In this document: one piece after another, positions 9,805-53,140 of the stretch
Layout of the letters: the number at the start of each line of letters is the position of its first letter
Position numbering within the stretch: position 1 is the first letter of the stretch
Assembly: GCA_036149055.1 (NCBI GenBank)
Contig: JAYZQJ010000209.1
Span: 1-64,000 of the forward strand
Source of the DNA: Myxococcota bacterium
Lineage (GTDB): Bacteria > Myxococcota_A > Polyangia > Polyangiales > Sandaracinaceae
Reading direction: 5' to 3'
DNA length: 64,000 nucleotides
Made by a program: the position numbers and the translations under genes
Notes under the pieces: generated by a model
Database searches by the model: none
The model's input: only the letters and a program-made list of their open reading frames with translations
What the model was told of the DNA's origin: nothing

Positions 9805-10434
9805 CTACATCTCGTTGAAGCCGAGCTCCCCCAGGTGCCGGACGAAAGCTTCCCTCGTCCTGGCGGCGGCCGTCAGGAACGGCTGACCGTCGAGCGCGCT
9901 GATGAGCGCGTCACCGCGCCGGTAGATCGTGAGATCCTGGTGATCGACGACTCGCTCCCAGCTGGCTTCGATCCGCGGCATCACGGGCTCGGGGTCCTGT
10001 AGGTCACCGGCGTGTTCGAAGCCGCCCCACGCGGTCTGGAGGTAGAGCAGAATCTCGAGGAACTGGCTGAGCCGGACCTCCTCCGAGTGCCACTCGAGGG
10101 TGTCCTCGCCGAGTACGTTGCCCACCTCGGCATCCGCGCCTTCCTCCGGGCGACAACCCCAGACGCATGCGCCCTGGTTCTCCTCGCAGAAGAGGATGCG
10201 TCCCTCCGAGTACCTGAGCCCGGCCGGACCGTAGAACCGGTTGTGCGCGGCCATGACGCACGGCTCTGCGCCGCAGGCGAGATAGAACGCTCGAAGGGGG
10301 GCTGGAATCGCGACCCCGAGCCGACGCTCGGCGTCGGCCGCCGCGGTCTCCGCCACACCCACGGGCCGCCGTTCGTACAGGCGCTCGAAGAGCTGCACGA
10401 AGTCGGTCTTTCGATCTCGGGGCCACTTGCTCAT
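9805..10434 (-). CDS. SMI1/KNR4 (SUKH)-like protein
   Basis: AERRLGVAIPAPLRAFYL and LFCEENQG..VWG, typical of SUKH-superfamily immunity-like proteins. Confidence 0.7.
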   Translation of the reverse strand: MSKWPRDRKTDFVQLFERLYERRPVGVAETAAADAERRLGVAIPAPLRAFYLACGAEPCVMAAHNRFYGPAGLRYSEGRILFCEENQGACVWGCRPEEGADAEVGNVLGEDTLEWHSEEVRLSQFLEILLYLQTAWGGFEHAGDLQDPEPVMPRIEASWERVVDHQDLTIYRRGDALISALDGQPFLTAAARTREAFVRHLGELGFNEM

Positions 10435-38734: not shown

Positions 38735-40696
38735 ATGCTCCGTGCTGTACCGGCGCTCGTCCTCGTCCTCTCGGCCTGCACCGCCCCCGAGCCGACACCG
38801 GGCGCTCACACCGAGCCGCTGCGCTCCGCGCGGGACAGCTTCGGTATCCGGCAGATCTACCCCACGTCGGGAGACACCTGGACGGCGGACTTCACGCGGG
38901 CGCGCACCCTGGGCCCCGGCGACTCGGTCGGCGACCTCTGGAACCGCGGCAACGGCACCCTGCGCATCGTGGGCGACGGGACGGCCATCGCGAGCGGCAG
39001 CACCCAGCGCCACTACATCGGCGACCGGTCGGAGCGGCGCCAGTGGGGCAGCCTCGAGCTCACCTACTACGCGCGCCGGCTCGACGACCTGACCCGGGAC
39101 GAGCTGCTCGCCGGTCCGTCCAACGCGGGCATCACCGCAGAGGTGCGCACCGGGGACGGACACTCGAGCGGCGCCTCCGCCTCGCGTCGCTGCGAGGGGC
39201 GCGCCTACGGCGGCTCGTTCCGCTTCTACGGGCACGCCTCGTTCGCCAAGGAGCTGCAGCACCCGAACTACGCGCCGAGCTCGGCCGCCGACTCCGCGGG
39301 GGGCGACGTGCGGCGCAACGTGTGGCCCTCCGGCGTGCCCCGGAACACCTGGATCGGCTTCAAGCTCGTGGTCTACGACCGGCCGGGGCAGGCGGTGCTC
39401 GAGCTCTACCGAGACCTGTCCGGCGGCGCGGGCGGCGGCACCTGGGAGCTGCTGATCCGCTACGTCGACGAGCCCGGGCGCTGGGGCATCCCCGGCACGT
39501 CGAGCCTGTGCGGCATGCCGACCGACCGCGTGATCTCCGAGCCCGGCCCCTACGTCATCGTGCGCAACGAGACGACCCGCGTGCAGTACCGCGATCTCAC
39601 CATCCGGGAGATCGAGGCGGCGCCGGTCGCGGGCAGCGCCTACGTCGACATCGGCGACTCCATCTTCGTCGACGCCATCCGCTGGCTCGAGCGGCGCGGC
39701 GACCTGGTGCCCTGCAACCCGCCCTGGAACACCTGGTTCTGTCCGGACGACGCCCTGCAGCGCGGAGAGGTCGCCGCCTTCTTCGCGCGCGCGCTCGACC
39801 TCAGCCCGCCCGGCGGCGACCGCTTCCGGGACGACGACACCAGCCCCTTCGAGGACGACATCGAGGCGATCGCCGAGTGCGGCATCTCGCGCGGCTGCAA
39901 CCCGCCGACCAACGACCGCTTCTGCCCCGACTCGCCGGTCACGCGCGGGCAGATGGCGGCGTTCTTCGACCGCGCCTTCGACCTGCCGTCCACCGGACGC
40001 GACTACTTCACCGACGACGACGGCTCGATCTTCGAGCCCGCGATCAACCGGCTCGCGGCGGCCGGCATCACCCTGGGCTGCAACCCGCCGACCAACGATC
40101 GCTTCTGCCCCGACGACTCGGTCACCCGCGGGCAGCTCGCCGCGTTCCTCAAGCGCGCGCTCGAGTCGGTGCCGCCCACCTCGGCGTGCGTGTGTCGGGC
40201 GAGCGCCGAGGTCTGCAACGCCCTCGACGACGACTGCGACGGCGCGGTCGACGAGAACGCGAGCGCCGAGGTGTGCGGCGGCGGAGACGACGACTGCGAC
40301 GGCGCGGTCGACGAGAACGCGCGCCCCGAGACCTGCGACGGGACCGACGAGGACTGCGACGGCGCGGTCGACGAGGACGACCACGCCGAGAGCTGCAACG
40401 GGATCGACGACGACTGCGACGGCGTCGTCGACGAGGTGTCGTGCGCGGCGGACGGCGGCGCCCCCGCGGTCGACGGCGGCGGCCTCACCTCCGACGGGGG
40501 CGGGAGCGAGCCTCGCGACGGCGGCCCGATCCCGCCCCGCCGCGACGCGGGCCGCGGGACGGACGCCGGCGACGACCCCGACACGCTCTCCGGGGGCTGC
40601 GGCTGTCGCGCCGCCGGGGGAGGCCGCGCCCCGCTCCTCGGGTTGCTCGCGCTCGTGATCCCGCTCCTCTCGAGGCGCAGGTCCTCGACGGCGTGA
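38735..40696 (+). CDS. Multidomain surface protein: lipobox, beta-rich domain, three SLH-like repeats, four Cys/Asp-rich repeats, MYXO-CTERM-like tail
   Basis: LSAC lipobox, three CNPP.N..FCPD....RG..AAF repeats, four E.C...D.DCDG.VDE repeats, and GGCGC..TM..RRR tail. Confidence 0.85.
   Translation: MLRAVPALVLVLSACTAPEPTPGAHTEPLRSARDSFGIRQIYPTSGDTWTADFTRARTLGPGDSVGDLWNRGNGTLRIVGDGTAIASGSTQRHYIGDRSERRQWGSLELTYYARRLDDLTRDELLAGPSNAGITAEVRTGDGHSSGASASRRCEGRAYGGSFRFYGHASFAKELQHPNYAPSSAADSAGGDVRRNVWPSGVPRNTWIGFKLVVYDRPGQAVLELYRDLSGGAGGGTWELLIRYVDEPGRWGIPGTSSLCGMPTDRVISEPGPYVIVRNETTRVQYRDLTIREIEAAPVAGSAYVDIGDSIFVDAIRWLERRGDLVPCNPPWNTWFCPDDALQRGEVAAFFARALDLSPPGGDRFRDDDTSPFEDDIEAIAECGISRGCNPPTNDRFCPDSPVTRGQMAAFFDRAFDLPSTGRDYFTDDDGSIFEPAINRLAAAGITLGCNPPTNDRFCPDDSVTRGQLAAFLKRALESVPPTSACVCRASAEVCNALDDDCDGAVDENASAEVCGGGDDDCDGAVDENARPETCDGTDEDCDGAVDEDDHAESCNGIDDDCDGVVDEVSCAADGGAPAVDGGGLTSDGGGSEPRDGGPIPPRRDAGRGTDAGDDPDTLSGGCGCRAAGGGRAPLLGLLALVIPLLSRRRSSTA
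40201..40436 (+). repeat. Four tandem 60-bp coding repeats
   Basis: Period-60 repeat with core GACTGCGACGGCG(C/T)(G/C)GTCGACGAG. Confidence 0.9.
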
Positions 40697-40726
40697 GGTC
40701 CGGCCACGGGTGTGGTACGGCCTCGC

Positions 40727-41629
40727 ATGCGTCGACCCCTCAGCGCCGCCGCCGCGCTCCTCGTGCTCGCCTGCGGCGCGAGCGCCCCAGCCCCCTCCAG
40801 CGCCCCGTCGGCCGAGCCGGTCGCCACCGTGCCCCTGCGTCAGGCGAGCGGACAGTTCCACACCCTGCCGGTGACGGTGAGCGGCGAGCAGACCACCGCC
40901 ATCCTCGACACCGGCATCGGCCTCGCGCTGGTCTCGGGCGCGCTCTGCGCTCGCGTCGGCTGCGAGATCGACGGCGAGTTCGTCGGCCAGCGCATGTCGG
41001 GCCAGGAGGTGCGCGTGCCCCTGACGCGCCTCGCGAGCCTCGAGGTCGGCGGCGTCGTCCAGCGTGACGTGACCGCGGCGGTGATCGAGATCGAGGGCTT
41101 CTTCCCGGAGCCCCACATCGAGGCGTTCGTCGGCCTGCCCTTCTTCCGCGACCAGCCGTTCACCATCGACGGCCCCGGGAGCGCCCTGGTCCTCGAGTCC
41201 GAGGCCAGCCTGGCGGCTCGCGCGCGGGAGGGGCGCTCGCTCCCGATCCGGCTGCACCAGCAGGGGCCTGCGCTCGACACCTTCGTGCGCCTCTCTTTGG
41301 GCGACGGCCAGGCGTCTGCCGAGGTCCTCATGGACACCGGGAGCCGGACCCTGATCCTGCACCCTCGGTACGTCGAGCTGCTCGGCGTCGACCTGGAGGA
41401 CGCTCGACGTCGCGAGGGCGAGGACGAGACCGGCAACCCCTACGAGCGCGCTTACGTCACGCTCGACGGCCCGGTGGCCTTCGAGGGCGCGCCCGAGCTC
41501 CGGCGCACGGGGGCGGAGGTGATGTTCCAGGAGATCATCTACGACGGGCTCATCGGCACCGCGCTGCTCTCGGAGTTCGCGGTGACCTGGGATCTCGGCC
41601 GCGAGCGCATCTTGGTCGCCGAGCGTTGA
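40727..41629 (+). CDS. Bilobal retropepsin-like aspartyl protease lipoprotein
   Basis: VLAC lipobox, ILDTG and LMDTGS catalytic motifs, and DGLIG. Confidence 0.88.
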   Translation: MRRPLSAAAALLVLACGASAPAPSSAPSAEPVATVPLRQASGQFHTLPVTVSGEQTTAILDTGIGLALVSGALCARVGCEIDGEFVGQRMSGQEVRVPLTRLASLEVGGVVQRDVTAAVIEIEGFFPEPHIEAFVGLPFFRDQPFTIDGPGSALVLESEASLAARAREGRSLPIRLHQQGPALDTFVRLSLGDGQASAEVLMDTGSRTLILHPRYVELLGVDLEDARRREGEDETGNPYERAYVTLDGPVAFEGAPELRRTGAEVMFQEIIYDGLIGTALLSEFAVTWDLGRERILVAER

Positions 41630-41660
41630 CGCCGGCTCGGCGCGCCCTCATCACCCCGTC

Positions 41661-42338
41661 GTGACGGAGCTCGACAGCGTGGTGCCCGGTCGCGTCTGGC
41701 GGGTCGCGCGCCTGGTGTGGTTCAGCGGGGTGAAGCTCCGCACGCACGCGACGGTGGTGAAGCTCGACGACGGCGGGCTCTGGGTGCACGGGCCGCCGCC
41801 GCCGACCGAGCCCATCCGCGCCGCGCTCGACGCGCTCGGGCCGGTGCGCTGGGCGGTCGTGCCGAACCTCTTCCACCACGTGGCCGCGCCCGCGTTCGCC
41901 GCGGCGTACCCGGAGGCGACCCTGATCGGCCCGGACGCGATCCGCGCGAAGAACCCCGCCGTGCAGCCGGCGGTGAGCGCGGCCGAGAGGGTGGTGAAGG
42001 AGCTCGAGCCGCACCCGCTCGACGGCGTGCCGCTGCTGGACGAGACGCTCTTCTTCCATCACCCGACGCGCACGCTCATCGGCACCGACGTGGTCATGAC
42101 CGCGTGCGCCGCCGATCACTGGACCTGGCGCGCGGCCGGGCGGATCACGGGCTGCTGGAACCGCGTGCGCCCGCCGCCCGACGTGCGCTGGAAGACCCCG
42201 CGGAGCGAGGCCGCCGCCCGATCGATCGAGCGCCTCGCCGCGCTCCCGATGGACCGCCTCCTCGTCGCGCACGCCGACCCGATCGAGGAGCGCCCCGCCG
42301 ACCAGCTCCGCGACGCCTGGGCCTATCAGCGCCGATAG
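41661..42338 (+). CDS. DUF4336 family protein (MBL-like fold)
   Basis: TVVKL..GGLWVH, VVPNLFHH, FFHHPTRTLI.TD and VAH motifs. Confidence 0.85.
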   Translation: MTELDSVVPGRVWRVARLVWFSGVKLRTHATVVKLDDGGLWVHGPPPPTEPIRAALDALGPVRWAVVPNLFHHVAAPAFAAAYPEATLIGPDAIRAKNPAVQPAVSAAERVVKELEPHPLDGVPLLDETLFFHHPTRTLIGTDVVMTACAADHWTWRAAGRITGCWNRVRPPPDVRWKTPRSEAAARSIERLAALPMDRLLVAHADPIEERPADQLRDAWAYQRR

Positions 42339-42409
42339 AAGCGACCGCGTCTGCGGGCGCCGACCCTCTGTGAATTGCGCGCCCCGCCCTCAGCTCCCAC
42401 TCTCGCCCG

Positions 42410-43057
42410 GTGACCAGCCGCCCGATCCCGGTCGTTCCTCTCGGTGCGGGGCGGCTCATGCCGGCGCTCTTGCTCGGCTACGAGACCCATCGGAACCCGC
42501 CGTGGGGGGAGACCGAGCCGCCGCGATGGCTGGTGCACGTGGAGCAGCAGGCGGGGGGCGGCGTGATGTCGTACCCCTCGGCCCACGGCGTCCTCCTACG
42601 ACTCGAGGCGAACGCCGACCTCGCGCTCCGTGACCCGGCGCCGCTCATCGCGGCCTTTCACGCGATGGCCGAGGACCCCCGGCCGGGTGAGGTCGCGCGG
42701 CTCGAGCCGAGGCTGCTCGCCGCCTGCGACACCCGGGGAGAGCCTCTCCCTCCCTCCACCCTGGACGGGCTCTCGGACGCCCTGACCCGCTACTTCGACC
42801 TGCCGCGCTGTCTCGGCGGGCTGGAGGCGTTCGTGCGCCTCGACGACGCACCGACCTGCGTGCTCGGGTGGCGCCGCGTGGTGCCGGCGCGGGGCGTCGC
42901 GGGCATCGGCGAGGAGTGGCCCGGAGGCTCGTCGCAGTGGGCCGACGGCTCGCCGCTGGAGCCGCACGACCTCGAGACGCTGGAGCGCGCGTGTCGCGCC
43001 GCGCTGCGGGTCGCGTCGCCGCCTTCGCTCTTCCTGCTCTGGGAGAACAGCGATTGA
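42410..43057 (+). CDS. Hypothetical protein (possibly DUF6210-like)
   Basis: QQAGG..YPS, LEAFV and C-terminal LLWENSD. The family assignment is from recall only. Confidence 0.6.
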   Translation: MTSRPIPVVPLGAGRLMPALLLGYETHRNPPWGETEPPRWLVHVEQQAGGGVMSYPSAHGVLLRLEANADLALRDPAPLIAAFHAMAEDPRPGEVARLEPRLLAACDTRGEPLPPSTLDGLSDALTRYFDLPRCLGGLEAFVRLDDAPTCVLGWRRVVPARGVAGIGEEWPGGSSQWADGSPLEPHDLETLERACRAALRVASPPSLFLLWENSD

Positions 43058-43062
43058 GGGCG

Positions 43063-43158
43063 ATGAGGTGCAGGTCGGTCGGGGCGAGCGGCTGCGCGTG
43101 GGCGATCGCGGCGGCGCTCGTCGTGGCCGGCTGCGCTCCGCGGGCGATCTCCGCGTGA
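43063..43158 (+). pseudogene. Orphan lipoprotein signal peptide (truncated gene)
   Basis: GAGG then ATG. MRCRSVGASGCAWAIAAALVVAGCAPRAISA* stops 7 residues after the lipobox Cys. Confidence 0.45.
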
Positions 43159-43176
43159 TTCGCTCCCGATAGATAG

Positions 43177-43809
43177 TCAGAAGACGGAGTCTCGGTCCAA
43201 GCTCGACACCAGGGGGGCAGCGGTCTTCGCGAGGCGCTCGGAGAGCTCGTCGCGCGCCCGCTCGCCGCCCTCCACGATGTGTTTCAACTCGGGCAGGGTC
43301 AGGAGCTTCAGGCTGGCGAGACGAATCGGCGACAGTGGCCCTTGCACCGAACTGGGCACCGGCGGCGCCTCCAGACCCACCAGGACGCCGACCCGACCTT
43401 CGCCGTTGACGAAGCGCGGGCGCGCGGCCTCGGGGATCGGGATGTCGTAGAGCTCGGTCGAGATGCAGCCCAGCTCGTCGAGCAGCGCATGGATCTGTCC
43501 GTGGCCTGCCACCTGGGCCGCGAAGCCGGCGACGACCTGGAAGATCCAGCTCTCTTTCAGCGGCTGCTCGACCTCGGTGACGCCGAACACCTCCACCGCG
43601 AAGCCGTTCTGCTTCGGCGGATCGCGCCACGAGTCGTCGAACGGATCGGAGAGCCCATCCGTGGCGAGGATGATCCCCGCCGGCCCCCGCACCGTCTTGT
43701 AAGCCTGGCGCAGGTTGGGCCAGGCCGGGGCGCCCGTGAAGGCCGGGTTGATGAGCGGAGCCAGCAGGTACGGATCCACCTCCCCGCACTCGGTCTCCGG
43801 AGGGGGCAT
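43177..43809 (-). CDS. Suppressor-of-fused (SUFU)-like protein, possibly 5'-truncated
   Basis: INPAF.G.PAWP, ILATDGLSDPF, GF.VE, W.FQVV and LKLLT..EL..G...R.EL..RL. Confidence 0.6.
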   Translation of the reverse strand: MPPPETECGEVDPYLLAPLINPAFTGAPAWPNLRQAYKTVRGPAGIILATDGLSDPFDDSWRDPPKQNGFAVEVFGVTEVEQPLKESWIFQVVAGFAAQVAGHGQIHALLDELGCISTELYDIPIPEAARPRFVNGEGRVGVLVGLEAPPVPSSVQGPLSPIRLASLKLLTLPELKHIVEGGERARDELSERLAKTAAPLVSSLDRDSVF

Positions 43810-43878
43810 GCGCCCCCTCCCGCCCGACCGGCAAAGCCGGCTCGGGCTCCCACCCCATCTCACGCGCTCACGCGCGTG

Positions 43879-43907
43879 GAAGGTGCGGCAATATTTGCCG
43901 CACCTTC
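43879..43907. repeat. Perfect 13-bp-arm palindrome GAAGGTGCGGCAA-TAT-TTGCCGCACCTTC
   Basis: Read directly from the sequence. Intergenic between the PLC-like and SUFU-like genes. Confidence 0.85.
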
Positions 43908-44022
43908 ACTCCACGCCGCGTCTCGGGCCCGGAAGGTCTCTTCACAGAGCCGCTCGTGCTCGGTCTCGTCGAACATGCCGGCATCTTACGCCCGCCGCGC
44001 GCCGATCTACTCGGCGTCTTCT

Positions 44023-46959
44023 TCACGGGGCGCCCGCGCGCTCCCAGGCGAGGGTGTAGCGCCAGCGGCGGGGCGGGCGCGGGCCGGGGGGCATGCCGGT
44101 GAGCTCCATGCGCCAGACGAGGCCGTACTCGATCGGGAGCCCGTCGGGGCACGGCTCGCCGAAGGGCAGCGCGCTGCACCGGCCGGCCGCGGTCACCGCG
44201 TACTGGTGGCTCGGGTAGGGGCCGGGCGTGAAGCCCGACGGCGTGGGGCCGGTCCAGAGCCGGGTGCCCACCGCCAGGGGGCCGTCCGCGCCGCAGAGAT
44301 CCTCGGCCCCGTCGAAGACGTCGGTGCAGTCGTCGATCGTGTGCCGGATCACCGTCCCCCCCTCGCAGAACGGGTGGATGGCCCGGAAGTCCTGCCCGGT
44401 CTCCGAGCCCGAGAAGGGCGGTCGAAGGGTCTCGAGGCCGGTGTAGACCGCGCGGCGGACGTCGAGCCGGAAGCGCCCGACGCTGCGCACGCGGCTCTCG
44501 TCGGGGCCGCGGTCGTCCCGGATGATCTCGACGCGGTAGATGTCTGGCGGGAAGCGCGCGGCGTCCAGCTCGAACGCGATCTCCTCCGGCGTCCAGGACG
44601 CGACCTCGGCGAGCTGGCTCGTCCGGTCCGGATCGTTGCAGCCGGTCTCGCCGACCAGCTTGATGCGGCCCGCCGCCACGCCGAAGTTCCGGCCGTGGAG
44701 CGTCACCCACGGCGTCAGCTCCTCGAACGACACGCGGCCCATCTCGTCGAAGCCGGGGGTGATCACCTGCCGGGCGCCGCTCGCGTCGACCACGAAGTCC
44801 TCGTCGTCCACGTGCACGACCGGCACCGCGCGGCACCACGCGTCGAGGCTCTCGTACCGCGGGCCGCCCGAGATCGGGACCCGCGCGTAGGGGCCGCTCT
44901 CCGCGCTGACGTAGCCGGGGTGGAGCTCGACCGGGTTGTCGTCCCAGTAGCTCGCCGCGCTCGATCGGGCCTCCTCCGGCGTGGCGCCGAGCACCTGGCA
45001 CATCGGCGCCGCGGCCGGGGCGGCCGAGTCTCCGCTGCCGCCGAAGAGCGACTCCCGCCGCTGCTCCCGCTGCCGGCCCTCGTAGGGCGCCGGGGTCGGC
45101 CGATACCAGGCGTAGGTCTCCTCGAAGAGGCGGTCGGCGAGGAGCACGCACGCGTGCCGGCGCCGCTCGAGATCCTCCGCGAGCGCGCCTTCCGGGATCG
45201 GCGCCGGCCAACGCAGCCCCTGCCGCGGCGAGTCGGCGGGGAGCTCGGGATCGAACCGGAGGTCGACGGGCGCGCGCTCGCAGAGCTCCGGCGCGAGGGC
45301 GCGGTTGAAGAAGCCCATCAAGGTGCGCTGATCCCGACCTGGGCGCTCCATGCCGGCGGGGTCCGGCTCGCCCTCGCGCGCCAGCAGCGGCAGCGCCGAC
45401 AGCGACACCGGCTCGGCGTACGCCGGCGCCGCCGCGCTCACGTAAGCCTGTCCGGGCTGGACGCCGTAGAGCGCGGGCAGCGTCTCGCCGCGCGCGAGGT
45501 CGGTGCGCTCGGGCGCTCGCAGGGCGCGCTCGTGCACCTTCAGCGCCATGCGCGCGAAGTCCTGGGTCAGCAGGTCGACCGCGCCCTCGCTCTCCACGCC
45601 CACCACGAGCACCAGCGCGCCGACCTGCAGGCCGGCCGCGAGGAACTGACCCAGCCGGCCCTGGCCCAGCGTGTTGAGCCCGGTGTCGAGCGCCTCGTTG
45701 GTCGCCCAGTGATCGAAGCAGTAGGTCTCACCGCCGGCGTCCGACGCGATCGACACCTCTCGGTCGAAGGTCGGTGCGCCTCCGATGGCGAGGGAGAACG
45801 CTCCGCGCGAGCCGTCGGGGTTGGGGTGGAAGCGTCGGGCCACGTCGGCGTAGCCCGCCTTCGCGCAGCGCATCATGTCGTCGAGCTGCCCCGAGACGTC
45901 CATCGGCGCGCCGAGGAAGCGCCCGCGCAGGCCGTCGGCGAAGCGGTAGTCGCCGACCACCGGGAGCGGGACCGACGTGCTCGGGCCGTGCACGCCGATC
46001 GGGGTCACCGCGCCGTCGGTCACCTCCGGCGAGCAGAGCGGGTCGGGGCTCGAGCCCGGCGGGAGGATGGAGCTCAGGACGGCCTCCGCCCCGTGCACGA
46101 CGCCGGTGATGCCGCCCAGCGCCATGTTCACGACGTAGTCGTTCGGCCGCGGGAGGCCTTCGTAGGAGCCGGCGTTCCAGCGGTTCCAGGTGTGCCCGCT
46201 CGACCAGCGGTCCTGCAGGAAGTGCTGCGCGTAGGCCTCGTAGGCGAGCGCCATCACCTCGGCCTCTCGCTGGTAGCGCGCGGCCTCGGCCTCCTCGAAC
46301 GCGGTGCCGCCGGCGCGCGCCGCCTCGATCGCCGCGCCGATCTGGTTGGCCGCCTCGGCGCGGGCGAGGGCGACGGCGTGGAAGTGCCGGTAGAACGCGG
46401 TGGCCTGGTCGCCGAAGTGGCTGCTGTTGAGCACCGCCCCGAGCCAGCCCGCGAACGCGTGGCACCGACTCTGGTGGGGCGCGGCCGAGGGGAGCGAGGG
46501 GCAGAAGCGGTTTCGGTTGATCCAGTCCGAGATCGTGTAGCTGTAGTCCGGCATCCCGGTGAACCGCGCGGGGTGCGGGATGCGCCGCTCGAGCAGCGGG
46601 GTCTCCGCGTCGTCGCCCTCGTCTTGCCCCGCCGGCACGCCGACCTGCGCGACCTCCGGGTGCCAGATGGCGGCGTTCAGATCGACCGCGTCGGCGACGG
46701 GCGTGGTGTAGAGGGACTCCCAGCCGAGCTGGGTGAAGGCGTAGTGGGAGATCTCGGTGTGCTCGTTGCCCGGGAGGCTGTCGAACGACGAGGTGCGGAA
46801 GGCGGCGTAGGCGGCGGCGTCGGCGGGCGCGGCGTGGATCGAGTACCAGTCGTTGTCGGCGCCGTTGGGGACCGTCCGGGTGTCCCAGCCGGTCAGGAGT
46901 GAGAGCAACGTCGCGGCGAGCGCCGCGCGGCGCGAGAACCTGGTCACAGTCACCTCCAT
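44023..46959 (-). CDS. Large secreted zinc-dependent phospholipase C/P1-nuclease-fold protein with IPT/TIG-like C-terminal domain (978 aa)
   Basis: Signal ..SRRAAL..LTG|W, then EH, GMPD, SSHF, HFLQDRWSSGH and HGAE. VTLHGRNFG..SWT marks the TIG-like domain. TGATG coupling to the upstream gene. Confidence 0.75.
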   Translation of the reverse strand: MEVTVTRFSRRAALAATLLSLLTGWDTRTVPNGADNDWYSIHAAPADAAAYAAFRTSSFDSLPGNEHTEISHYAFTQLGWESLYTTPVADAVDLNAAIWHPEVAQVGVPAGQDEGDDAETPLLERRIPHPARFTGMPDYSYTISDWINRNRFCPSLPSAAPHQSRCHAFAGWLGAVLNSSHFGDQATAFYRHFHAVALARAEAANQIGAAIEAARAGGTAFEEAEAARYQREAEVMALAYEAYAQHFLQDRWSSGHTWNRWNAGSYEGLPRPNDYVVNMALGGITGVVHGAEAVLSSILPPGSSPDPLCSPEVTDGAVTPIGVHGPSTSVPLPVVGDYRFADGLRGRFLGAPMDVSGQLDDMMRCAKAGYADVARRFHPNPDGSRGAFSLAIGGAPTFDREVSIASDAGGETYCFDHWATNEALDTGLNTLGQGRLGQFLAAGLQVGALVLVVGVESEGAVDLLTQDFARMALKVHERALRAPERTDLARGETLPALYGVQPGQAYVSAAAPAYAEPVSLSALPLLAREGEPDPAGMERPGRDQRTLMGFFNRALAPELCERAPVDLRFDPELPADSPRQGLRWPAPIPEGALAEDLERRRHACVLLADRLFEETYAWYRPTPAPYEGRQREQRRESLFGGSGDSAAPAAAPMCQVLGATPEEARSSAASYWDDNPVELHPGYVSAESGPYARVPISGGPRYESLDAWCRAVPVVHVDDEDFVVDASGARQVITPGFDEMGRVSFEELTPWVTLHGRNFGVAAGRIKLVGETGCNDPDRTSQLAEVASWTPEEIAFELDAARFPPDIYRVEIIRDDRGPDESRVRSVGRFRLDVRRAVYTGLETLRPPFSGSETGQDFRAIHPFCEGGTVIRHTIDDCTDVFDGAEDLCGADGPLAVGTRLWTGPTPSGFTPGPYPSHQYAVTAAGRCSALPFGEPCPDGLPIEYGLVWRMELTGMPPGPRPPRRWRYTLAWERAGAP

Positions 46960-47393
46960 CACAGCGGCAGCCCCTCCGGCGGGCCCGGATCGCCGCAGGG
47001 CGCGCCGGTGTCGACGAAGACGGCGCGGTAGGCGGCCAGCTGCGACTCCAGATCCGCGGCGCCCTCGGCCCGCGCGGCGAAGTCGTCGCGACACTCCGCC
47101 GGGCACGTGGCCGCGTCGACGCACGCCGGGACCTCGCCGCCTCCGTCCCAGCACGCGTAGAACGTCGCGAAGCACAGCTGCCACTGCCGCCGAGGGCCGT
47201 CGCGGCGCGGATCGGCGAGGAGGGTCACGTCGCCGCCATGTCCGCCGGACAGGGTCGCGAGCTCGACGCAGCGGTCGTCGCACTCGGGGCTGGCGGGCTG
47301 GGACGCGGGCTGCCAGGGCCCGACGCTCTCGGGCGCGCAGGCGGTGGCCGCGCAGAGGAGGAGCGCGGGCCAGGGTCTCGAGATCGGCGTCAT
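46959..47393 (-). CDS. Cys-rich lipoprotein
   Basis: MTPISRPWPALLLCAATAC lipobox, eight further cysteines. Confidence 0.75.
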   Translation of the reverse strand: MTPISRPWPALLLCAATACAPESVGPWQPASQPASPECDDRCVELATLSGGHGGDVTLLADPRRDGPRRQWQLCFATFYACWDGGGEVPACVDAATCPAECRDDFAARAEGAADLESQLAAYRAVFVDTGAPCGDPGPPEGLPL

Positions 47394-47400
47394 GACCCCG

Positions 47401-47428
47401 GAGTGCCCGCGGCGGCGAATTCGATCGC
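47401..47428 (-). promoter_or_regulatory. Candidate ECF promoter, copy 1
   Basis: The minus strand reads GCGATCGAAT-TCGCCGCCGC-GGGCACTC, 7 nt before the ATG at 47393. Confidence 0.75.
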
Positions 47429-47430
47429 CG

Positions 47431-47458
47431 GTGATCGAATTCTCCGCCCCGGGCACTC
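47431..47458 (+). promoter_or_regulatory. Candidate ECF promoter, copy 2
   Basis: GTGATCGAAT-TCTCCGCCCC-GGGCACTC, then GGAGG and the ATG at 47479. Confidence 0.75.
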
Positions 47459-47478
47459 CAGCGTCGGAGGTGAAGCGG

Positions 47479-47943
47479 ATGAGGCTCGTCTGGCTGGTGA
47501 TGGTGCTCTCGATGGTCGGCTGCGGAGACGGAGGCACGCCCGACGGCCCGGACGGCGGCCGCGAGGACGGCGGCGTCGAGGACGCGGGGGAGGGCATGTT
47601 CTGCCAGCTCGGCGCCAACGGCTGCGGCTGCTTCACGGGGCGCACGCCGGTGTGCGACGACCCCGGCGCGATGTGCGTCGAGGGCGAGTGCGTCGACTGC
47701 GAGGCCGAGCCCGCGCGCTGCATGACCCCGCCGACCTGCGGCGGGGCGGAGCTCTGCGCCCGCACAATCGACGAGTGCGGCACCGACATCACCCAGGAGG
47801 CGTGCGAGGGGTTCTACGACGAGTCGACCACCACCTGCGGCGACCTCGACGGCTACACCCGGTGTAACTGCCGGTGCATCGAGGAGCCCACCTGCGATGA
47901 CTACTTCTCGTGTGGCATGACCTGCTTCGAGGACTGGTGTTGA
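47479..47943 (+). CDS. Cys-rich lipoprotein
   Basis: MRLVWLVMVLSMVGC lipobox and about 20 cysteines. Confidence 0.8.
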   Translation: MRLVWLVMVLSMVGCGDGGTPDGPDGGREDGGVEDAGEGMFCQLGANGCGCFTGRTPVCDDPGAMCVEGECVDCEAEPARCMTPPTCGGAELCARTIDECGTDITQEACEGFYDESTTTCGDLDGYTRCNCRCIEEPTCDDYFSCGMTCFEDWC

Positions 47944-47970
47944 GGCTCGCGTGGTATCCTCGTCTCCGGC

Positions 47971-48543
47971 ATGGAGCGAGACGACGAGTCGCTCCTGATC
48001 GCGTGGCGTGAGGGGGATCGGGCCAGCGGCGAAGAGCTCTTCGCGCGCTACTTCGACCGCCTCTACGCGTTCTTCAGCGCCAAGGCGGACGCCGCCGAGG
48101 TCGCCGACCTCGTGCAGAAGGTCTTCGTCGGGTGCGTGGAGGGCGCGGGCCGGTTCCGCGGCGAGAGCACGGTGCGCGCCTACTTCTACGGCGTCGCCCG
48201 GAACGTGCTCTACCGCCACTACCGGACCCGGCGCCGGGCCCCCGAGGTCGACTTCGGGGTCTCCTCGCTCTTCGACCTCGCGCCCAGCCCCTCGTCGATC
48301 GTGCACCGCGCGGCGCGGGAGCGACGGCTCGCCGAGGCGCTCGAGCGGCTCCCTCTCGAGCTGCAGCTCCTGATCGAGCTGCGCTTCGACGAGGGGCTGA
48401 GCGGGCCGGAGCTGGCCGACGCGCTCGGGCTGAAGGAGGGCACGGTGCGCAGCCGGCTCCGGCGCGCGCTCGGGCTGCTGCGCGAGGCGCTGGCGGAGGC
48501 GCCCCCGGCGGAGCTCGAGCGGTGGGATCGCCTCGCCGAGTGA
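47971..48543 (+). CDS. ECF sigma-70 factor
   Basis: Region 2 (LFARY..RLY.FF, DLVQKVF, FRGES, YFYGVARN) and region 4 (LERLP...EGLS..ELA..LGL.EGTVRSRL.RA). Confidence 0.93.
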   Translation: MERDDESLLIAWREGDRASGEELFARYFDRLYAFFSAKADAAEVADLVQKVFVGCVEGAGRFRGESTVRAYFYGVARNVLYRHYRTRRRAPEVDFGVSSLFDLAPSPSSIVHRAARERRLAEALERLPLELQLLIELRFDEGLSGPELADALGLKEGTVRSRLRRALGLLREALAEAPPAELERWDRLAE

Positions 48544-51500
48544 ACGCCCGCCGCTTCACGCCCCTGGCCGTGCTCGGGCGCGGAGGGGGCGGCACGGTGG
48601 AGCGGGTGCACGACGCGCGGCGCGGGGCCGAGGTCGCGCTCAAGCGGCTGCGCGGCGCCGACCGCGCGCTCGAGGCCGCGCTGCGTCGGGAGCACCGGCT
48701 GCTGACCGGGCTGCGTCACCCGAGCCTGGTGATCCCGCTCGAGCTCGGCCGCGACGAGGAGGGCCTCTACCTGGTCAGCCCGCTCGCCGAGGGCGACGAC
48801 TTCGTGACCCACTGCCGCGGCTCCTGGCTGCGCATCGCGAGCGCGGTGCCCCAGCTGCTCTCGGCGCTGCGTTACCTGCACGAGCGCGGCCTCACCCACG
48901 GCGATCTCTCGCCGGCGAACGTGCGCGTCGCGCCGAGCGGGCGGCTCCGGCTGATCGACTTCGGCCTCGCCGGCCTCGAGGGCGAGCGGCTCGCCCCGCG
49001 CGGCGGCACCCCCGGGTACGCCGCGCCCGAGCGGCTCGCCGGCGGGGGGCCGTCTGCGGCCTCGGACCTGCACGCGTTCGGCGCGCTGCTCGACGCGGTG
49101 GCGCCCCGGCCGAGGCCGGTGGCGGTGGAGGCCTGTCTCGCGGCGCTGCGGGGAGCCCCCTCCACGCGCCCCTCGGCGGCGTCGCTCGAGGAGTCGCTGC
49201 TGCCGGCCCTCGGCGCGGCCTCTCCCGCGCCGCCGCTGGAGCGCGGCGGGGGGCTGGTCGGGCGGGCCGCGCTGATCGGGCAGGTGACCGGCGCGCTGCT
49301 CGGCGAGCGCTCGGTCTTGCTGACCGGGCCCTCGGGCGTCGGGAAGACGGCCCTGCTCGACGCGATCGCCGAGCGGCTGTCCGGCGCTCGCCTGGTGATG
49401 CGGGCGCGCGCGCGACCCGGATCGCGGGCCCCGTTCGAGGCGCTCGACCAGCTCTTCGAGGGGGCGACCTCGGCGCTCGGGCCTCCGTCCCCGGAGCTCC
49501 GCGAGGTCGCGGCGCGCCTCGGACGCCACTCGGTCGCGCTCGCCGGCTGGATCGACCAGAGCCCGCACGCGCTCCGGACGAAGGCCGAGCTGCGCGCGAA
49601 GCTCTTCGGTGGGCGCGTCGAGCCGGACGTGGCGCGGGACGTGGCCGCCTTGCTCGCCGCCTTGCCGGCGCCGCTCCTGATCCTCGACGACCTCCACTGG
49701 TTCGACCCCGACTCGCGGACCTGCCTCCGGACGCTCGTCGAGCGAGGTGAGGCGCTCGTGCTCGCGGCGGCTCGCTCGGCCGTCGCCGCCGACTTCCCCT
49801 GCGCGCGGGTGGATGTCGCGCCGCTCGACGACGAGGCGATGCGCCGGCTGCTCGCGGCCACCGGGGTCGACGGGACCCACGCGCGCCGCGTCGCGGAGGG
49901 CGCGCACGGGCTGCCGGGCCTGGCGCTGCTCGCTGCGAGGTTCGCGCGTGGTGAGCGGCCGCTGGAGCGGGCGCTGAGCGAGCGGGTGCGGGAGCTGGCC
50001 GACCGCGAGCGCCGGGCCCTGGCCGCGCTCTGGGTGGCGGGTGGCCCCCTGGAGAGCGGAGAGCTGGGCGACGACGTGTGCGCGACGCTCGACGCGGCCG
50101 GCCTGATCTCGCGCTCGGGCTCGCGCGTAGACCTCGTGCACGACGCGTTGCGCGCTCCGCTCGCGGTCGCGCTCGGCGAGGACTGGCTGCGGACGGCCCG
50201 GCTCGAGCGCGCGACCGAGCCCGAGGTGCCCGCGGCGGCGCGGGTCGAGGCGTTCCTGGCGCTGGGGGACGAGCGCCGGGCGGCGGAGCTCGCGCGCGTC
50301 GCGATCGTGGAGGCGACCGAGGCGGGGGCGCCGCGTCGCGCGGCCGAGCTCTGGGAGATCGTCGCCCGCGTGGACCCGTCGGCGCGCCTGGAGCACGCGC
50401 GCGCGCTCGCGCTCGCCGGAGAGCACGACGCCGCCGCGGAGCGATTCCGGGCGCTCGCGGACGAGACGGAGGGCGTGGAGCGACGGGCCCACACCCTCGC
50501 GCGGGCCCACGCCCTGCTCGCGGCGCGGCGCGTCGCCGAGGGGAAGGCGGCGCTCGGCGCGGCGCTCGGGGCTCCGGCGCCTCCGCGGCGCACGCTGCTG
50601 CGGTTCCTCCGAGGGCCACGACCGGAGCCCGCGCGGCTGGACCTCGACGGCGCCGAGCTGGCGCTGCGTGACGCCGCGCTCGCCGCGTACTTCGATCTGC
50701 TCGAGGGCGTGCGGCTGGCGCTCGACGCCCGGAGCGGCTTCGTGGGCCGCGATCCGGCGCTCGGCGCCTGGGCCGACTCGCTGCTCGCGTTCTTCGCGCG
50801 CTTCGCCGGCGCGACCTGGCTCTCCGAGCGCTACCGCCGCGCCGCGGCCCGCTGGGGGGCCGACCACGCGAGGCCGATCGTGGCCCAGTTCCCGACGTTC
50901 CTCGACGCCTACGACGAGCTCCGGAGCGGGAGCGCCGCCCGCGCGGTGGAGCTGCTCGACCACGCGCTCGCGGAGCTCGAGGGCACGCCCGACGCGCGCT
51001 CGTTCGAGGCCCAGCTCGTCCTCAGCCTCCGCACCAGCGCGGTGATCAAGACGCAGCGCCTCCCCGCGCTGCAGGCCGCGGTGGCGCGGTTCGAGGCGAA
51101 CACCCGCCTTCAGGCCGACGTCGCGCTGCACGTGCACGTCGAGACGGCGCGCGCGGTGGCGCGGGTGTGGGAGGGGCGCTTCGAGGACGCGGTCCGAGGG
51201 CTCGAGCGGGCCGAGGCGGCCTGGCCCGCGCGTCCGCGGCTGCTCCAGCACCTCCTGCTCGAGGCCTACGCCGCCTGGCCGCGCGCGCTGCTGGGGGACG
51301 CGCCGGCCGCGCACGAGGCGCTCGCCGCCGCCCTCCGCGGTCACCGCGCGATGCTGCTCTCGGCCTACGGACCCATCCTGCTGGCCTTCTCGGCCGCGAC
51401 CGAGCTCGCCGCCCACCGGGCCGGGCACGCGAGCGCCTCCCCGCGCCGCGCGCTGTCTCACGCGCTGCTCTCGGCCGGGCGACCCTCGTTCGCGAGCGGC

Positions 51501-51716
51501 CTCGCCCGCCGGGTGATCGCCCACGTGACCGGGCGGGGCTGGGCGCGGGTCGAGCGCGCCGCGCGCCGAGACGACCAGCCGATCGACCTCGCGCTCGCGA
51601 TCCACGCGCGCGGCGTCGCCACGCGGGACGCCCGGCTCCGGGGCCGCGCGCGAGAGATCCTGGCCGACGCCGGCGCCAGCCCGCGCCTGCTCGAGGAGCG
51701 CGAGCGCCTCGCGTGA
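48540..51716 (+). CDS. Cytoplasmic Ser/Thr kinase + P-loop ATPase + TPR-like helical protein
   Basis: GRGGGG, ALK, HGDLSPAN, DFG and GTPGYAAPE. Walker A GPSGVGKT, Walker B LLILDDLHW. GTGA overlap with the sigma gene. Confidence 0.88.
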   Translation: MNARRFTPLAVLGRGGGGTVERVHDARRGAEVALKRLRGADRALEAALRREHRLLTGLRHPSLVIPLELGRDEEGLYLVSPLAEGDDFVTHCRGSWLRIASAVPQLLSALRYLHERGLTHGDLSPANVRVAPSGRLRLIDFGLAGLEGERLAPRGGTPGYAAPERLAGGGPSAASDLHAFGALLDAVAPRPRPVAVEACLAALRGAPSTRPSAASLEESLLPALGAASPAPPLERGGGLVGRAALIGQVTGALLGERSVLLTGPSGVGKTALLDAIAERLSGARLVMRARARPGSRAPFEALDQLFEGATSALGPPSPELREVAARLGRHSVALAGWIDQSPHALRTKAELRAKLFGGRVEPDVARDVAALLAALPAPLLILDDLHWFDPDSRTCLRTLVERGEALVLAAARSAVAADFPCARVDVAPLDDEAMRRLLAATGVDGTHARRVAEGAHGLPGLALLAARFARGERPLERALSERVRELADRERRALAALWVAGGPLESGELGDDVCATLDAAGLISRSGSRVDLVHDALRAPLAVALGEDWLRTARLERATEPEVPAAARVEAFLALGDERRAAELARVAIVEATEAGAPRRAAELWEIVARVDPSARLEHARALALAGEHDAAAERFRALADETEGVERRAHTLARAHALLAARRVAEGKAALGAALGAPAPPRRTLLRFLRGPRPEPARLDLDGAELALRDAALAAYFDLLEGVRLALDARSGFVGRDPALGAWADSLLAFFARFAGATWLSERYRRAAARWGADHARPIVAQFPTFLDAYDELRSGSAARAVELLDHALAELEGTPDARSFEAQLVLSLRTSAVIKTQRLPALQAAVARFEANTRLQADVALHVHVETARAVARVWEGRFEDAVRGLERAEAAWPARPRLLQHLLLEAYAAWPRALLGDAPAAHEALAAALRGHRAMLLSAYGPILLAFSAATELAAHRAGHASASPRRALSHALLSAGRPSFASGLARRVIAHVTGRGWARVERAARRDDQPIDLALAIHARGVATRDARLRGRAREILADAGASPRLLEERERLA

Positions 51717-51740
51717 TCGAATCCGCTCCGCCGGGCACTC
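51713..51740 (+). promoter_or_regulatory. Candidate ECF promoter, copy 3
   Basis: GTGATCGAAT-CCGCTCCGCC-GGGCACTC overlapping the kinase stop, then GGAGG and the ATG at 51758. Confidence 0.75.
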
Positions 51741-51757
51741 CCGGGGCGGAGGTGAGA

Positions 51758-51979
51758 ATGAGAAGAGCGATGTGCGCGGCGATCCTGGCCCTCGGCCTGG
51801 CGTCGTTCGGCTGCAGCGACGACGGCGGCGATGGCGGAGGCTTCTGCTCCGCGGGCACCCTGGACTGCACCTGCCACCCCGGCTTCGGCTGCGAAGAGGG
51901 CCTGAGCTGCGTCGAGCGGGTCTGCGTGGACTGCGAAGCGACGCCCGGCGCGTGCGCCAGCCCGGACGGCGGCATGTAG
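51758..51979 (+). CDS. 73-aa Cys-rich lipoprotein, paralogous to the N-terminal domain of 47479..47943
   Basis: SFGC lipobox and FCSAGTLDCTC...CVERVCVDCEATPGAC. Confidence 0.8.
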   Translation: MRRAMCAAILALGLASFGCSDDGGDGGGFCSAGTLDCTCHPGFGCEEGLSCVERVCVDCEATPGACASPDGGM

Positions 51980-51985
51980 GCGGGA

Positions 51986-52065
51986 TGGGGATGGGGAAGG
52001 TCGTCCCCGTAGCTCGGAGACTGCGTCTCCGAGGGGGGGCGCGGGGGCGATCTTCCCCATCCCCA
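51986..52065. repeat. REP/MITE-like nested inverted repeat
   Basis: 24-bp arms TGGGGATGGGGAAGGTCGTCCCCG / CGGGGGCGATCTTCCCCATCCCCA (two G-T pairs) enclosing the hairpin CTCGGAGAC-TGC-GTCTCCGAG. Confidence 0.8.
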
Positions 52066-52070
52066 GACCT

Positions 52071-52508
52071 TCAGGGCCGACACGCCTCGTGGTGCATCCG
52101 GGTCCGCGCGATCAGCGCGTCGAGCGATCCGCGTCTTGGCGGGAGCCGGCGCCCGCCTTCGGTCTCGAGGAGCCGCCCGAGCGCGTCGAGGTCCCCCGCC
52201 CCCGCGGGGTCGCAGGTGAGCAGGCTCGCGCGGATCCGCTCCACGTGCTGCAGGGCGCGGGTCCACGCGCGATGACGCTCGCGCACCTCGTCCCAGGCCC
52301 GCCGGTCGGCGCCTGTCAGGTGCAGGGCCGCGAGCGCGTCCCGCTCGTTCTCCGCGTTCATCGCGATCTCGGCCCACGCGTCGCGCAGCGCATCCGCTCC
52401 ATCCAGGCAGGCCGGGCGCGCCGGGCAGCGGGGAGGCGGCGGCGCCTGCGCTCCGCAGCCCACGGCGAGCGCCAGCCCCAGCACGCGCGCGGCCGTCCCG
52501 ATCGTCAT
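52071..52508 (-). CDS. Lipoprotein, hypothetical
   Basis: MTIGTAARVLGLALAVGC lipobox, ATGA overlap. Confidence 0.65.
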   Translation of the reverse strand: MTIGTAARVLGLALAVGCGAQAPPPPRCPARPACLDGADALRDAWAEIAMNAENERDALAALHLTGADRRAWDEVRERHRAWTRALQHVERIRASLLTCDPAGAGDLDALGRLLETEGGRRLPPRRGSLDALIARTRMHHEACRP

Positions 52509-53035
52509 GCGGCCTGGTTCATCTGCTCGCGGAGCCCTCGCTCGTCGATCACGAAGTAATGATACGACTCGAACAGGGTGAGCAGCAGGCCGACGCGGCA
52601 GGGGGGCGCGTCGGCGAAGACGCGCTCGTACTCCGCCTCGATGCGCTCGCGGCTCGGGTCGGTCTCCCGGATGCGCAGCGCGCCGACGAAGTCTCGGTCG
52701 CCCAGGCGATTGGCGGCGCGCACGACGCACTTCGGGGCGCCCTGCACGCCCTCCAGCACGTGCCCGAACCACTCGGTCATCTCCTTCTCGACGTCCCAGT
52801 CGGCGTGCGCCTGGACGAGCGCGAGCCAGCCGCGGCGCCCGTCGGTGACGAGGGTGAGCTCGACGGAGATCGACGTGTACGGATCGCCCGCGCCGGGGAG
52901 CCCGTCGGGGACCCCGGAGAGCACCTCGGCCGCGCAGACGTGGAGCGAGCTGTGCTCCATGTAGCGGACGACGCGCTCGGCGAGCTGGTAGTCGAGGTAG
53001 GGGTCGGATTCGATCGGCAGGTCGGGCTTCTCCAT
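52505..53035 (-). CDS. Hypothetical protein
   Basis: MEKPDLPIESD... after GGAGG. Confidence 0.7.
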   Translation of the reverse strand: MEKPDLPIESDPYLDYQLAERVVRYMEHSSLHVCAAEVLSGVPDGLPGAGDPYTSISVELTLVTDGRRGWLALVQAHADWDVEKEMTEWFGHVLEGVQGAPKCVVRAANRLGDRDFVGALRIRETDPSRERIEAEYERVFADAPPCRVGLLLTLFESYHYFVIDERGLREQMNQAA

Positions 53036-53140
53036 GCGGTCCTCCAGGTGATGGCGGCCTATCGGAGTCACGAGAGGGCGGTTGCGTCTGACTTCGAGAA
53101 CCCCGAGCACCGCGCATGGGCGGTGCTATGCCATCCCTCG

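Follow-up and report, generated by a model that had tools for sequence, protein, structure and literature searches.

The window analysed here is a stretch of 64,000 nucleotides (nt) from a Myxococcota bacterium of the Sandaracinaceae (GCA_036149055.1, contig JAYZQJ010000209.1, positions 1-64,000, forward strand). It carries the gene of a sigma factor of the extracytoplasmic function (ECF) type, followed by the gene of a soluble protein kinase fused to a nucleoside triphosphatase (NTPase), and on both sides of this pair lie genes for small Cys-rich lipoproteins, one of them accompanied by a gene for a large secreted protein. A short bipartite motif occurs three times among these genes. The present analysis deals with this motif as the predicted promoter of the sigma factor and with the kinase-NTPase as the candidate regulator of the sigma factor. 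The features of the locus are summarized in Table 1.

Table 1. Predicted features of the sigma factor-kinase locus, in window coordinates (aa, amino acids)
Feature	Position	Strand	Remarks
Secreted protein, 978 aa	44023..46959	-	second gene of the predicted P1 transcript; N-terminal phospholipase C/P1-nuclease-type motifs; variable C-terminal part
lipC, Cys-rich lipoprotein, 144 aa	46959..47393	-	conserved partner of the hydrolase-like gene; predicted leaderless
P1, motif copy 1, predicted ECF promoter	47401..47428	-	position conserved in relatives
P2, motif copy 2, near-duplicate	47431..47458	+	adjoins P1 in opposite orientation; +1 predicted near 47466; no counterpart found in nearest relatives
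lipA, Cys-rich lipoprotein, 154 aa	47479..47943	+	weak likeness to lipB
TGGTATCCT, candidate housekeeping extended -10 box	47952..47960	+	inferred; similar TAnnnT boxes at the same place in loci L051 and L052
ECF sigma factor, 190 aa	47971..48543	+	region 2.2 EVADLVQK; linker DFGVSSLFDLAPSPSS; region 4.2 EGTVRSRLRR; Trp185 conserved in C-terminal helix
Soluble fusion of non-RD Hanks kinase, P-loop NTPase (AAA_16/STAND-type), and helical C-terminal region, 1058 aa	48540..51716	+	
P3, motif copy 3, predicted promoter	51713..51740	+	predicted +1 at about 51748; conserved in G139
lipB, Cys-rich lipoprotein, 73 aa	51758..51979	+	orthologue 3' of the kinase gene in G139
Strong hairpin after lipB	51986..52065	+	-74.6 kcal/mol, z -8.2

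An initial annotation of this DNA had listed three motif copies with an identical spacing of 10 nt, and both the spacing and the coordinates were confirmed. No further copy was found in the window with up to 3 mismatches. Shuffled versions of the window (n = 100) contained 0.21 matches on average, and none of them reached three. The host genome was scanned in full (9,885,391 bases), and the strict pattern as well as the shorter form GATCGAAT-N13-CACTC each matched only these three places; thus, the motif is not scattered genome-wide. As had been annotated, every copy precedes a gene for a Cys-rich lipoprotein, and the products of lipC, lipA, and lipB have a lipoprotein-type N-terminus and contain 10, 21, and 10 Cys, respectively. 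The end of copy 1 lies 7 nt from the ATG of lipC, while in copies 2 and 3 the same distance separates the motif end from a GGAGG, which is followed by lipA and lipB. The stop codon of the kinase gene falls within the -35 box of copy 3. The spacers had been described as variable. Those of a relative, genome G139, are unlike those of the window, but the spacers of copies 1 and 2 agree at 8 of 10 bases. Since they also fold as a single long inverted repeat (z -6.7), these two copies are not independent, and they probably arose by duplication.

The 190-aa protein contains sigma2 and sigma4 domains and no sigma3 domain, as defined for ECF (group 4 sigma-70) factors, and it is the only sigma factor of its clade in the genome. 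Its gene overlaps the kinase gene by 4 nt, and no anti-sigma gene is present. Accordingly, the annotation as an ECF sigma factor without an anti-sigma gene, translationally coupled to a soluble kinase, was retained. In the 1058-aa partner, Pkinase and AAA_16 were detected above the cut-off. The catalytic Lys, the HxD..N loop, DFG, and APE of Hanks-type kinases are all present, with the loop reading HGD (non-RD), and the AAA_16 domain has intact Walker A and B motifs, as in STAND-type P-loop NTPases. Lys35, Asp122, Asn127, DFG, APE, and Walker A/B were conserved in all seven aligned partners. The partner had been annotated as a kinase-P-loop ATPase-TPR protein, of which the first two parts held; the third was not confirmed, as the conserved, Ala/Leu-rich C-terminal region matched no TPR family in Pfam or NCBIfam at E-values up to 0.1. 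No convincing membrane segment was found in the kinase; the best 19-residue hydropathy value, 1.86, belonged to a charged helix that precedes Walker B. The host genome encodes another, divergent ECF sigma factor on contig C14 (105968-107823), directly behind a Ser/Thr kinase gene; its linker is rich in Ser, and its region 4.2 differs.

In relatives, the motif was found together with the sigma clade. G139, a one-contig chromosome from another family, encodes a sigma factor that is 80% identical to that of the window, and its chromosome contains exactly two motif matches. One lies divergent before the sigma gene and the other directly 3' of the kinase gene, and a lipoprotein gene follows each. 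Among 401 genomes of the order, matches without mismatch were found in two, the host genome and G139, which were also the only two genomes of this sample with a sigma factor of >60% identity. Another 53 genomes have matches with one mismatch, which are mostly background and were given no weight as evidence because GATCGA is common in coding sequence. One of them, in G106, adjoins a clade sigma gene.

A matrix constructed from five sites, three of the window and two of G139, was applied to the 669 kb of 53 other clade loci. At a score of 18, spacer 10 gave 10 hits, while each of 13 other spacers gave 0-2, and 40 unrelated ECF loci gave one hit. At a score of 15, the -10 box was followed by an ATG at a distance of 7-8 nt in 5 of 16 hits, compared with none of the 43 hits obtained with shifted spacers, and an exported or kinase gene started within 90 nt in 14 of 16 hits, compared with 18 of 43. 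As the clade genomes are related and not independent, p-values from Fisher tests on such counts overstate the significance. The main figures were taken from this matrix since its iterated version was partly circular and control counts rose with it. Iteration yielded the consensus GTGATCGAW-N14-(C/G/A)ACT(A/G/C) and 29 sites with a score of at least 18, which were read by eye. They lie before 15 lipoprotein genes, 5 other genes with a signal peptide, and 4 kinase genes (a fifth kinase gene by position); among the rest, one precedes a gene that is truncated at the edge of the locus and proved to encode a lipoprotein, and three have no gene. Thus, the check that had been proposed, namely that the motif should co-occur in relatives with orthologous sigma-kinase pairs, gave a positive result: the motif was found near clade loci at the same spacing, mostly before genes for lipoproteins or secreted proteins. 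In five genomes without the sigma clade, none of six pattern matches preceded an exported gene.

The DNA-reading residues of the sigma factor were compared with the -35 box. According to Todor et al. (2020, PMC7776599), RpoE position 171 reads -31, position 172 reads -34, and an Arg at position 175 is associated with T at -32. In the window sigma factor, R160, S161, and R164 align without gaps to positions 171, 172, and 175 of E. coli RpoE. For this numbering, a 3-residue tag in 1OR7 was assumed from the RpoE length of 191 aa, and the RpoE -35 element GGAAC served as the frame. With this frame, the residue code predicts G-A-T-C at -34 to -31, as observed. Across the clade, the motif was present at 21 of 26 loci with an R-S-x-x-R sigma factor and at 5 of 24 loci without it; L158, L160, and L154 had been dropped from this comparison as duplicates, and L051, the locus of G139, was a training locus.

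The -35 half of the motif equals that of ECF11 (RpoE/ChrR), whose promoter is GTGATC ... CGTA (PMC7826278), and the spacing is comparable. Moreover, P1 and P2 together form the strong inverted repeat described above, and repeated elements lie nearby, with 49 hits for the one left of the unit. These points would suit a motif that is read by another factor, namely an ECF11-type sigma factor encoded elsewhere, a dimeric regulator on the P1/P2 palindrome, or a repeated hairpin element. However, the -10 half is (C/G/A)ACT, CACT in the window, and not CGTA; the gene context differs from that of ECF11; no ChrR match above the cut-off was found in the host genome; counts of GTGATC-N-CGTA had no peak at 17-18 nt and followed codon periodicity only; relatives have single, unpaired copies; and the genomes lacking the clade had none of their matches before an exported gene. 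The ECF11 and palindrome readings were rejected on the -10 box, the lack of ChrR and of an ECF11 spacing peak, and the unpaired copies, and recognition by any other factor is considered highly improbable. Therefore, the proposal that the motif forms the -35 and -10 boxes of the adjacent sigma factor was strengthened by footprinting, spacing controls, start-codon geometry, residue co-variation, and the absence of a rival ECF11/ChrR system. Judging from the sequence, TGATC can with high confidence be taken as the -35 box and CACT(C/A) as the -10 box; the +1 is predicted at 7-8 nt, and the lipC transcript would be leaderless.

Two variants were observed within the clade. At L048 (8624, minus strand), a sigma factor with K-R-x-x-Q in region 4.2 has a candidate promoter GTGAAC...CACTA with an ATG at 7 nt, which makes it a candidate natural specificity switch. 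In a sub-clade made up of L179, L180, L183, and L184, the kinase is membrane-bound and convergent, the -10 box is a GGAAC-type variant, and one small exported target protein is conserved.

The reach of the regulon differed among genomes. In the host genome, the refined matrix gave no above-background site beyond the locus. A fourth site, on contig C14 (score 22.2, ATG at 7 nt), was rejected; it covers the start of another gene in antisense orientation and does not exceed the background, which at that score is 0-4 hits per control spacer. Thus, the description as a self-contained regulon holds for the host genome, but some relatives have dispersed targets. In five relative genomes, the pattern matched at 14 places outside the sigma locus, and 4 of these matches precede exported genes. 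In G226, four of seven matches precede genes for lipoproteins or signal-peptide proteins, and another is followed by an ATG at 8 nt. The strict pattern was not matched in two further genomes that carry the clade. A dispersed regulon of Cys-rich lipoproteins and secreted proteins was observed in G212 and G226 (L204-L207, L224-L231), where the kinase-sigma operon itself lies under the motif, as in autoregulation.

It had also been proposed that transcription from copy 2 continues into the sigma gene as positive feedback. No hairpin was found in the 27-nt gap between lipA and the sigma gene, so read-through is possible. It is not conserved, however: G139, L155, and G106 lack both copy 2 and lipA and have the sigma gene directly after the divergent promoter, so that read-through would be a local addition. 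The TGGTATCCT box, located 10 nt ahead of the sigma ATG, suggests a separate basal promoter for expression of the sigma factor and the kinase; a scan for the sigma-70 consensus gave no match.

These promoters bear on the explanation that the sigma factor is active as made and is set by its own synthesis, through the basal promoter and P2 read-through, with the kinase-NTPase being a co-regulated effector or defence protein with other substrates. Such an arrangement would agree with the acidic region 2.2, with P2 as a possible driver of sigma and kinase jointly, and with those loci where the motif stands directly before the kinase gene. In addition, STAND NTPase-kinase fusions occur in predicted conflict systems (PMC8195603). 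Nevertheless, an unchecked sigma factor with positive feedback would lock on, no anti-sigma gene is present, and the linker serines are conserved where this region is usually variable. The explanation was thus regarded as unlikely.

The sigma factor itself points to control by phosphorylation. In ECF43 sigma factors, the DAED of region 2.2 is replaced by an uncharged motif with a phospho-acceptor Thr, and the kinase encoded at +1 has one membrane helix and an extracytoplasmic TPR. The window sigma factor has EVAD at the position of this Thr, which closes the route used by EcfP, and its kinase lacks a membrane helix; accordingly, it does not belong to ECF43. The suggestion that its regulation may differ from that of EcfP was therefore borne out, since the DAED equivalent contains no Ser or Thr and the conserved Ser/Thr-Pro linker offers other sites. 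Across the 53 clade loci, Ser or Thr was found at linker position 99 in 50, at 106 in 46, and at 108 in 42, with Pro107 in 48, while the Glu of DxxDxxQE (after LVQ) was kept in only one. A kinase gene was present in 44 of the 53 loci, with varying positions and architectures, and most of the nine others are short or cut near the sigma gene. EcfK is activated by linker phosphorylation at Thr106 (PMC13147305). The frequency of the kinase gene, the conserved linker Ser/Thr, and the EcfK precedent favour activation by linker phosphorylation (Ser98/99/106/108/109), which by analogy is likely for the window sigma factor.

The mechanism proposed on this basis is as follows. The sigma factor would be kept weak until its soluble kinase-NTPase partner senses a cytoplasmic cue. 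The kinase would then phosphorylate the conserved Ser/Thr-Pro linker, making up for a region 2.2 without the Glu of DxxDxxQE, and the phosphorylated sigma factor would read P1-P3, so that the three exported-protein units are transcribed. Basal expression of sigma factor and kinase would come from the housekeeping -10 box, with a boost by P2 read-through in this lineage only. Taken as a whole, the reading that the motif copies are promoters of the adjacent sigma factor and that the kinase-NTPase switches this factor on by linker phosphorylation is considered reasonably probable.

The gene arrangement may also be explained by a sigma factor that owns the promoters and is held by the kinase-NTPase as a soluble anti-sigma factor or scaffold, which would release it on a nucleotide-driven change, or is turned off by phosphorylation. 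In the coupled sigma-kinase pairs, the genes overlap by 4 nt in five cases and by 1 or 7 nt in the rest, and a short gene overlap is the stoichiometric arrangement typical of sigma/anti-sigma pairs. The retained E43 and D46 and the Trp185 that is invariant in 27 close homologues, which makes the C-terminal Trp helix a possible contact, would fit as well, and so would the kinase gene of G139, which appears broken. On the other hand, the partners across the clade, whether membrane-bound or soluble and whether encoded upstream, downstream, or convergent, have only the kinase domain in common. Its catalytic residues are conserved, and kinase and Ser/Thr-Pro linker are the constants of the clade. 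Furthermore, the sigma-kinase pairs that were tested experimentally are activated by phosphorylation. An anti-sigma or scaffold role, or inactivation by phosphorylation, was thus judged rather unlikely. In a quick tree of the clade, the sigma factors with the window's partner type (window, L051, L155, L052, L031, and L168) cluster with a Shimodaira-Hasegawa-like approximate likelihood ratio test (SH-aLRT) support of 98, and the more distant sigma factors of L177, L182, and L185, outside this group, have the same partner type.

Several observations weigh against activation by the kinase or weaken the case for the promoters. As copies 1 and 2 are near-duplicates, the window provides two independent sites and not three. 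Five of the 26 R-S-x-x-R loci lack the motif. One of them, L052, is a contig of 5.9 kb that leaves hardly any flanking sequence, and the other four span 11-18 kb. In G139, the kinase orthologue is frameshifted in the assembly (L051, near 9870-9910) while the sigma factor and both promoters are intact; either the assembly is in error here, or this indicates that the complete partner can be dispensed with. The two acidic residues in region 2.2 mean that the sigma factor could be active unmodified. Finally, myxobacterial genomes are kinase-dense, with 217 tblastn pieces in the host genome, so adjacency alone is weak evidence outside the translationally coupled cases.

Among known systems, the pair resembles EcfK/PknS of Xanthomonas citri and EcfP/PknT of Vibrio parahaemolyticus (PMC13147305, PMC8999054), which likewise have no anti-sigma factor, a kinase at +1, and a linker Ser/Thr cluster (T104-S110 in EcfK). 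Unlike EcfK and EcfP, the window sigma factor has no Thr at the T51/T63 position and consists of ordinary sigma2 and sigma4 Pfam domains. Unlike PknS and PknT, its kinase has a P-loop NTPase and no membrane segment or periplasmic sensor, and the targets are lipoproteins and a hydrolase-like gene. For ECF283, Casas-Pastor et al. (2021, PMC7826278) give a Ser/Thr-rich late linker as the proposed phosphorylation site and CCTT (-35)/AG (-10) as the predicted promoter. The late linker is shared, and many clade members have a membrane kinase gene directly upstream, whereas the window kinase is soluble and at +1 and not transmembrane at -1 or +2. The motif is also not CCTT/AG, a prediction that assumed autoregulation, which most loci here lack. 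Thus, by comparison with the group description, the window sigma factor resembles ECF283 in part. The sparse distribution, the few targets, and a promoter predictable from sigma residues recall the local ECF regulators with small regulons, but the systems of the present clade are kinase-linked, are mostly not autoregulated, and have interchangeable exported cargo, in contrast to those regulators (Todor et al., 2020, PMC7776599). A literature search that was largely without subscription journals yielded no account of this promoter and none of an ECF sigma factor on which a soluble kinase-NTPase acts.

The large gene of the P1 transcript starts at ATG 46959 and overlaps the lipC stop. It had been annotated as a phospholipase-like enzyme. 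Its product has a mature N-terminal Trp, EH, NxxHF, and HFLQDxxSxGH, and 423 representative homologues were collected at E-values up to 0.001, with the family found in 16 of 300 other genomes of the phylum. The members comprise 800-1800 aa with variable C-termini and mostly a signal peptide followed by Trp, and their invariant Asp, Asn, and His include those of HFLQDxxSxGH. This Trp/Asp/Asn/His pattern resembles that of phospholipase C/P1 nuclease enzymes, and thereby of the zinc phospholipase C/P1 nuclease/Het-C/VWA7_N superfamily. Unlike that superfamily, the members are 800-1800 aa long, regularly have a dedicated Cys-rich lipoprotein gene upstream, and gave no match in Pfam, NCBIfam, and PDB sequence searches. 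Look-alikes in the Atlas (VWA7_N, Het-C, Zn_dep_PLPC, and clusters named phospholipase) reached 0.76-0.80 by features, and clusters named phospholipase gave template modelling (TM) scores of 0.46-0.47, all under the thresholds; a domain model from three sequences had a predicted local distance difference test (pLDDT) value of 33.5. The annotation as phospholipase-like thus agrees with the metal-ligand motifs and with look-alikes below the thresholds.

A Cys-rich gene (9-10 Cys) was found directly upstream in 12 of 17 homologous hydrolase-like loci by script, and four homologous loci matched lipC at E <1e-11, two of them outside the 12. Thus, lipC and the hydrolase-like gene form one conserved unit, which was recruited under P1, and they possibly represent an effector with its immunity protein or a chaperone. 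No motif was found upstream of the hydrolase-like homologues in the short stretches scanned. The other targets vary among relatives, and lipB is the only one common to the window and G139; for lipA, one search found no homologue outside its own cluster. The hairpin after lipB likely ends the rightward transcript. The predicted output would comprise a secreted protein that is metallo-phosphodiesterase-like, the lipoprotein dedicated to it, and two further surface lipoproteins, which are small and rich in disulfides; their most plausible role, as a contact-range antagonism or prey-lysis kit, is a tentative idea, somewhat less likely than even. A two-gene unit of a lipoprotein and a large secreted protein was observed at L233-L249 and window 44023-47393, conserved across Myxococcota and without a Pfam family.

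Switching on by a kinase has been shown for ECF43 sigma factors only, with membrane-receptor kinases. The locus thus offers a compact test system for a second route, with another sigma clade, another predicted phospho-site, and a cytoplasmic STAND-type sensor. As the promoter is readable, regulons become predictable in myxobacteria that have not been cultured, and no more than two genes and 60 bases are required for a reporter assay. A likely job is also assigned to one of the orphan kinase-ATPase proteins that are numerous in this group, and the locus points to an unannotated family of secreted hydrolase-like proteins paired with Cys-rich lipoproteins. More speculatively, this Myxococcota-wide, unclassified ECF clade might be a plug-and-play system from sensor to transcription, in which a cytoplasmic, NLR-like kinase-STAND receptor directly phosphorylates the sigma linker, membrane or soluble sensors and exported cargo (here a hydrolase effector with an immunity-like lipoprotein) are swappable, and one code, GTGATCGAW-N14-(C/G/A)ACT, with many leaderless transcripts serves throughout; this generalization is considered doubtful.

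A near-identical locus is present in data sets from seawater, estuary, and the gut of a marine invertebrate. Three RNA runs and one DNA run consist of contigs only, from which starts, strand, and level are unreadable, and two runs of one sample cover just pieces of the sigma factor and the kinase and a repeat; these runs were not used as evidence. In the same-genus genome G018, 2.7 kb separate the flanking genes, compared with 12.4 kb in the window, which shows that the unit sits in a variable stretch. This stretch (40697-53118) holds other genes in G018, where homologues of several window genes are located at other places. A repeated element of about 120-140 bp, with 49 blast hits in the genome, lies at 43780-43930, between the hydrolase-like gene and the next gene. 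Beyond the variable stretch, in a flank conserved in G018, the gene at 38735-40696 has an exported product that combines S-layer homology with MopE-like repeats and ends in a tail resembling a sorting signal.

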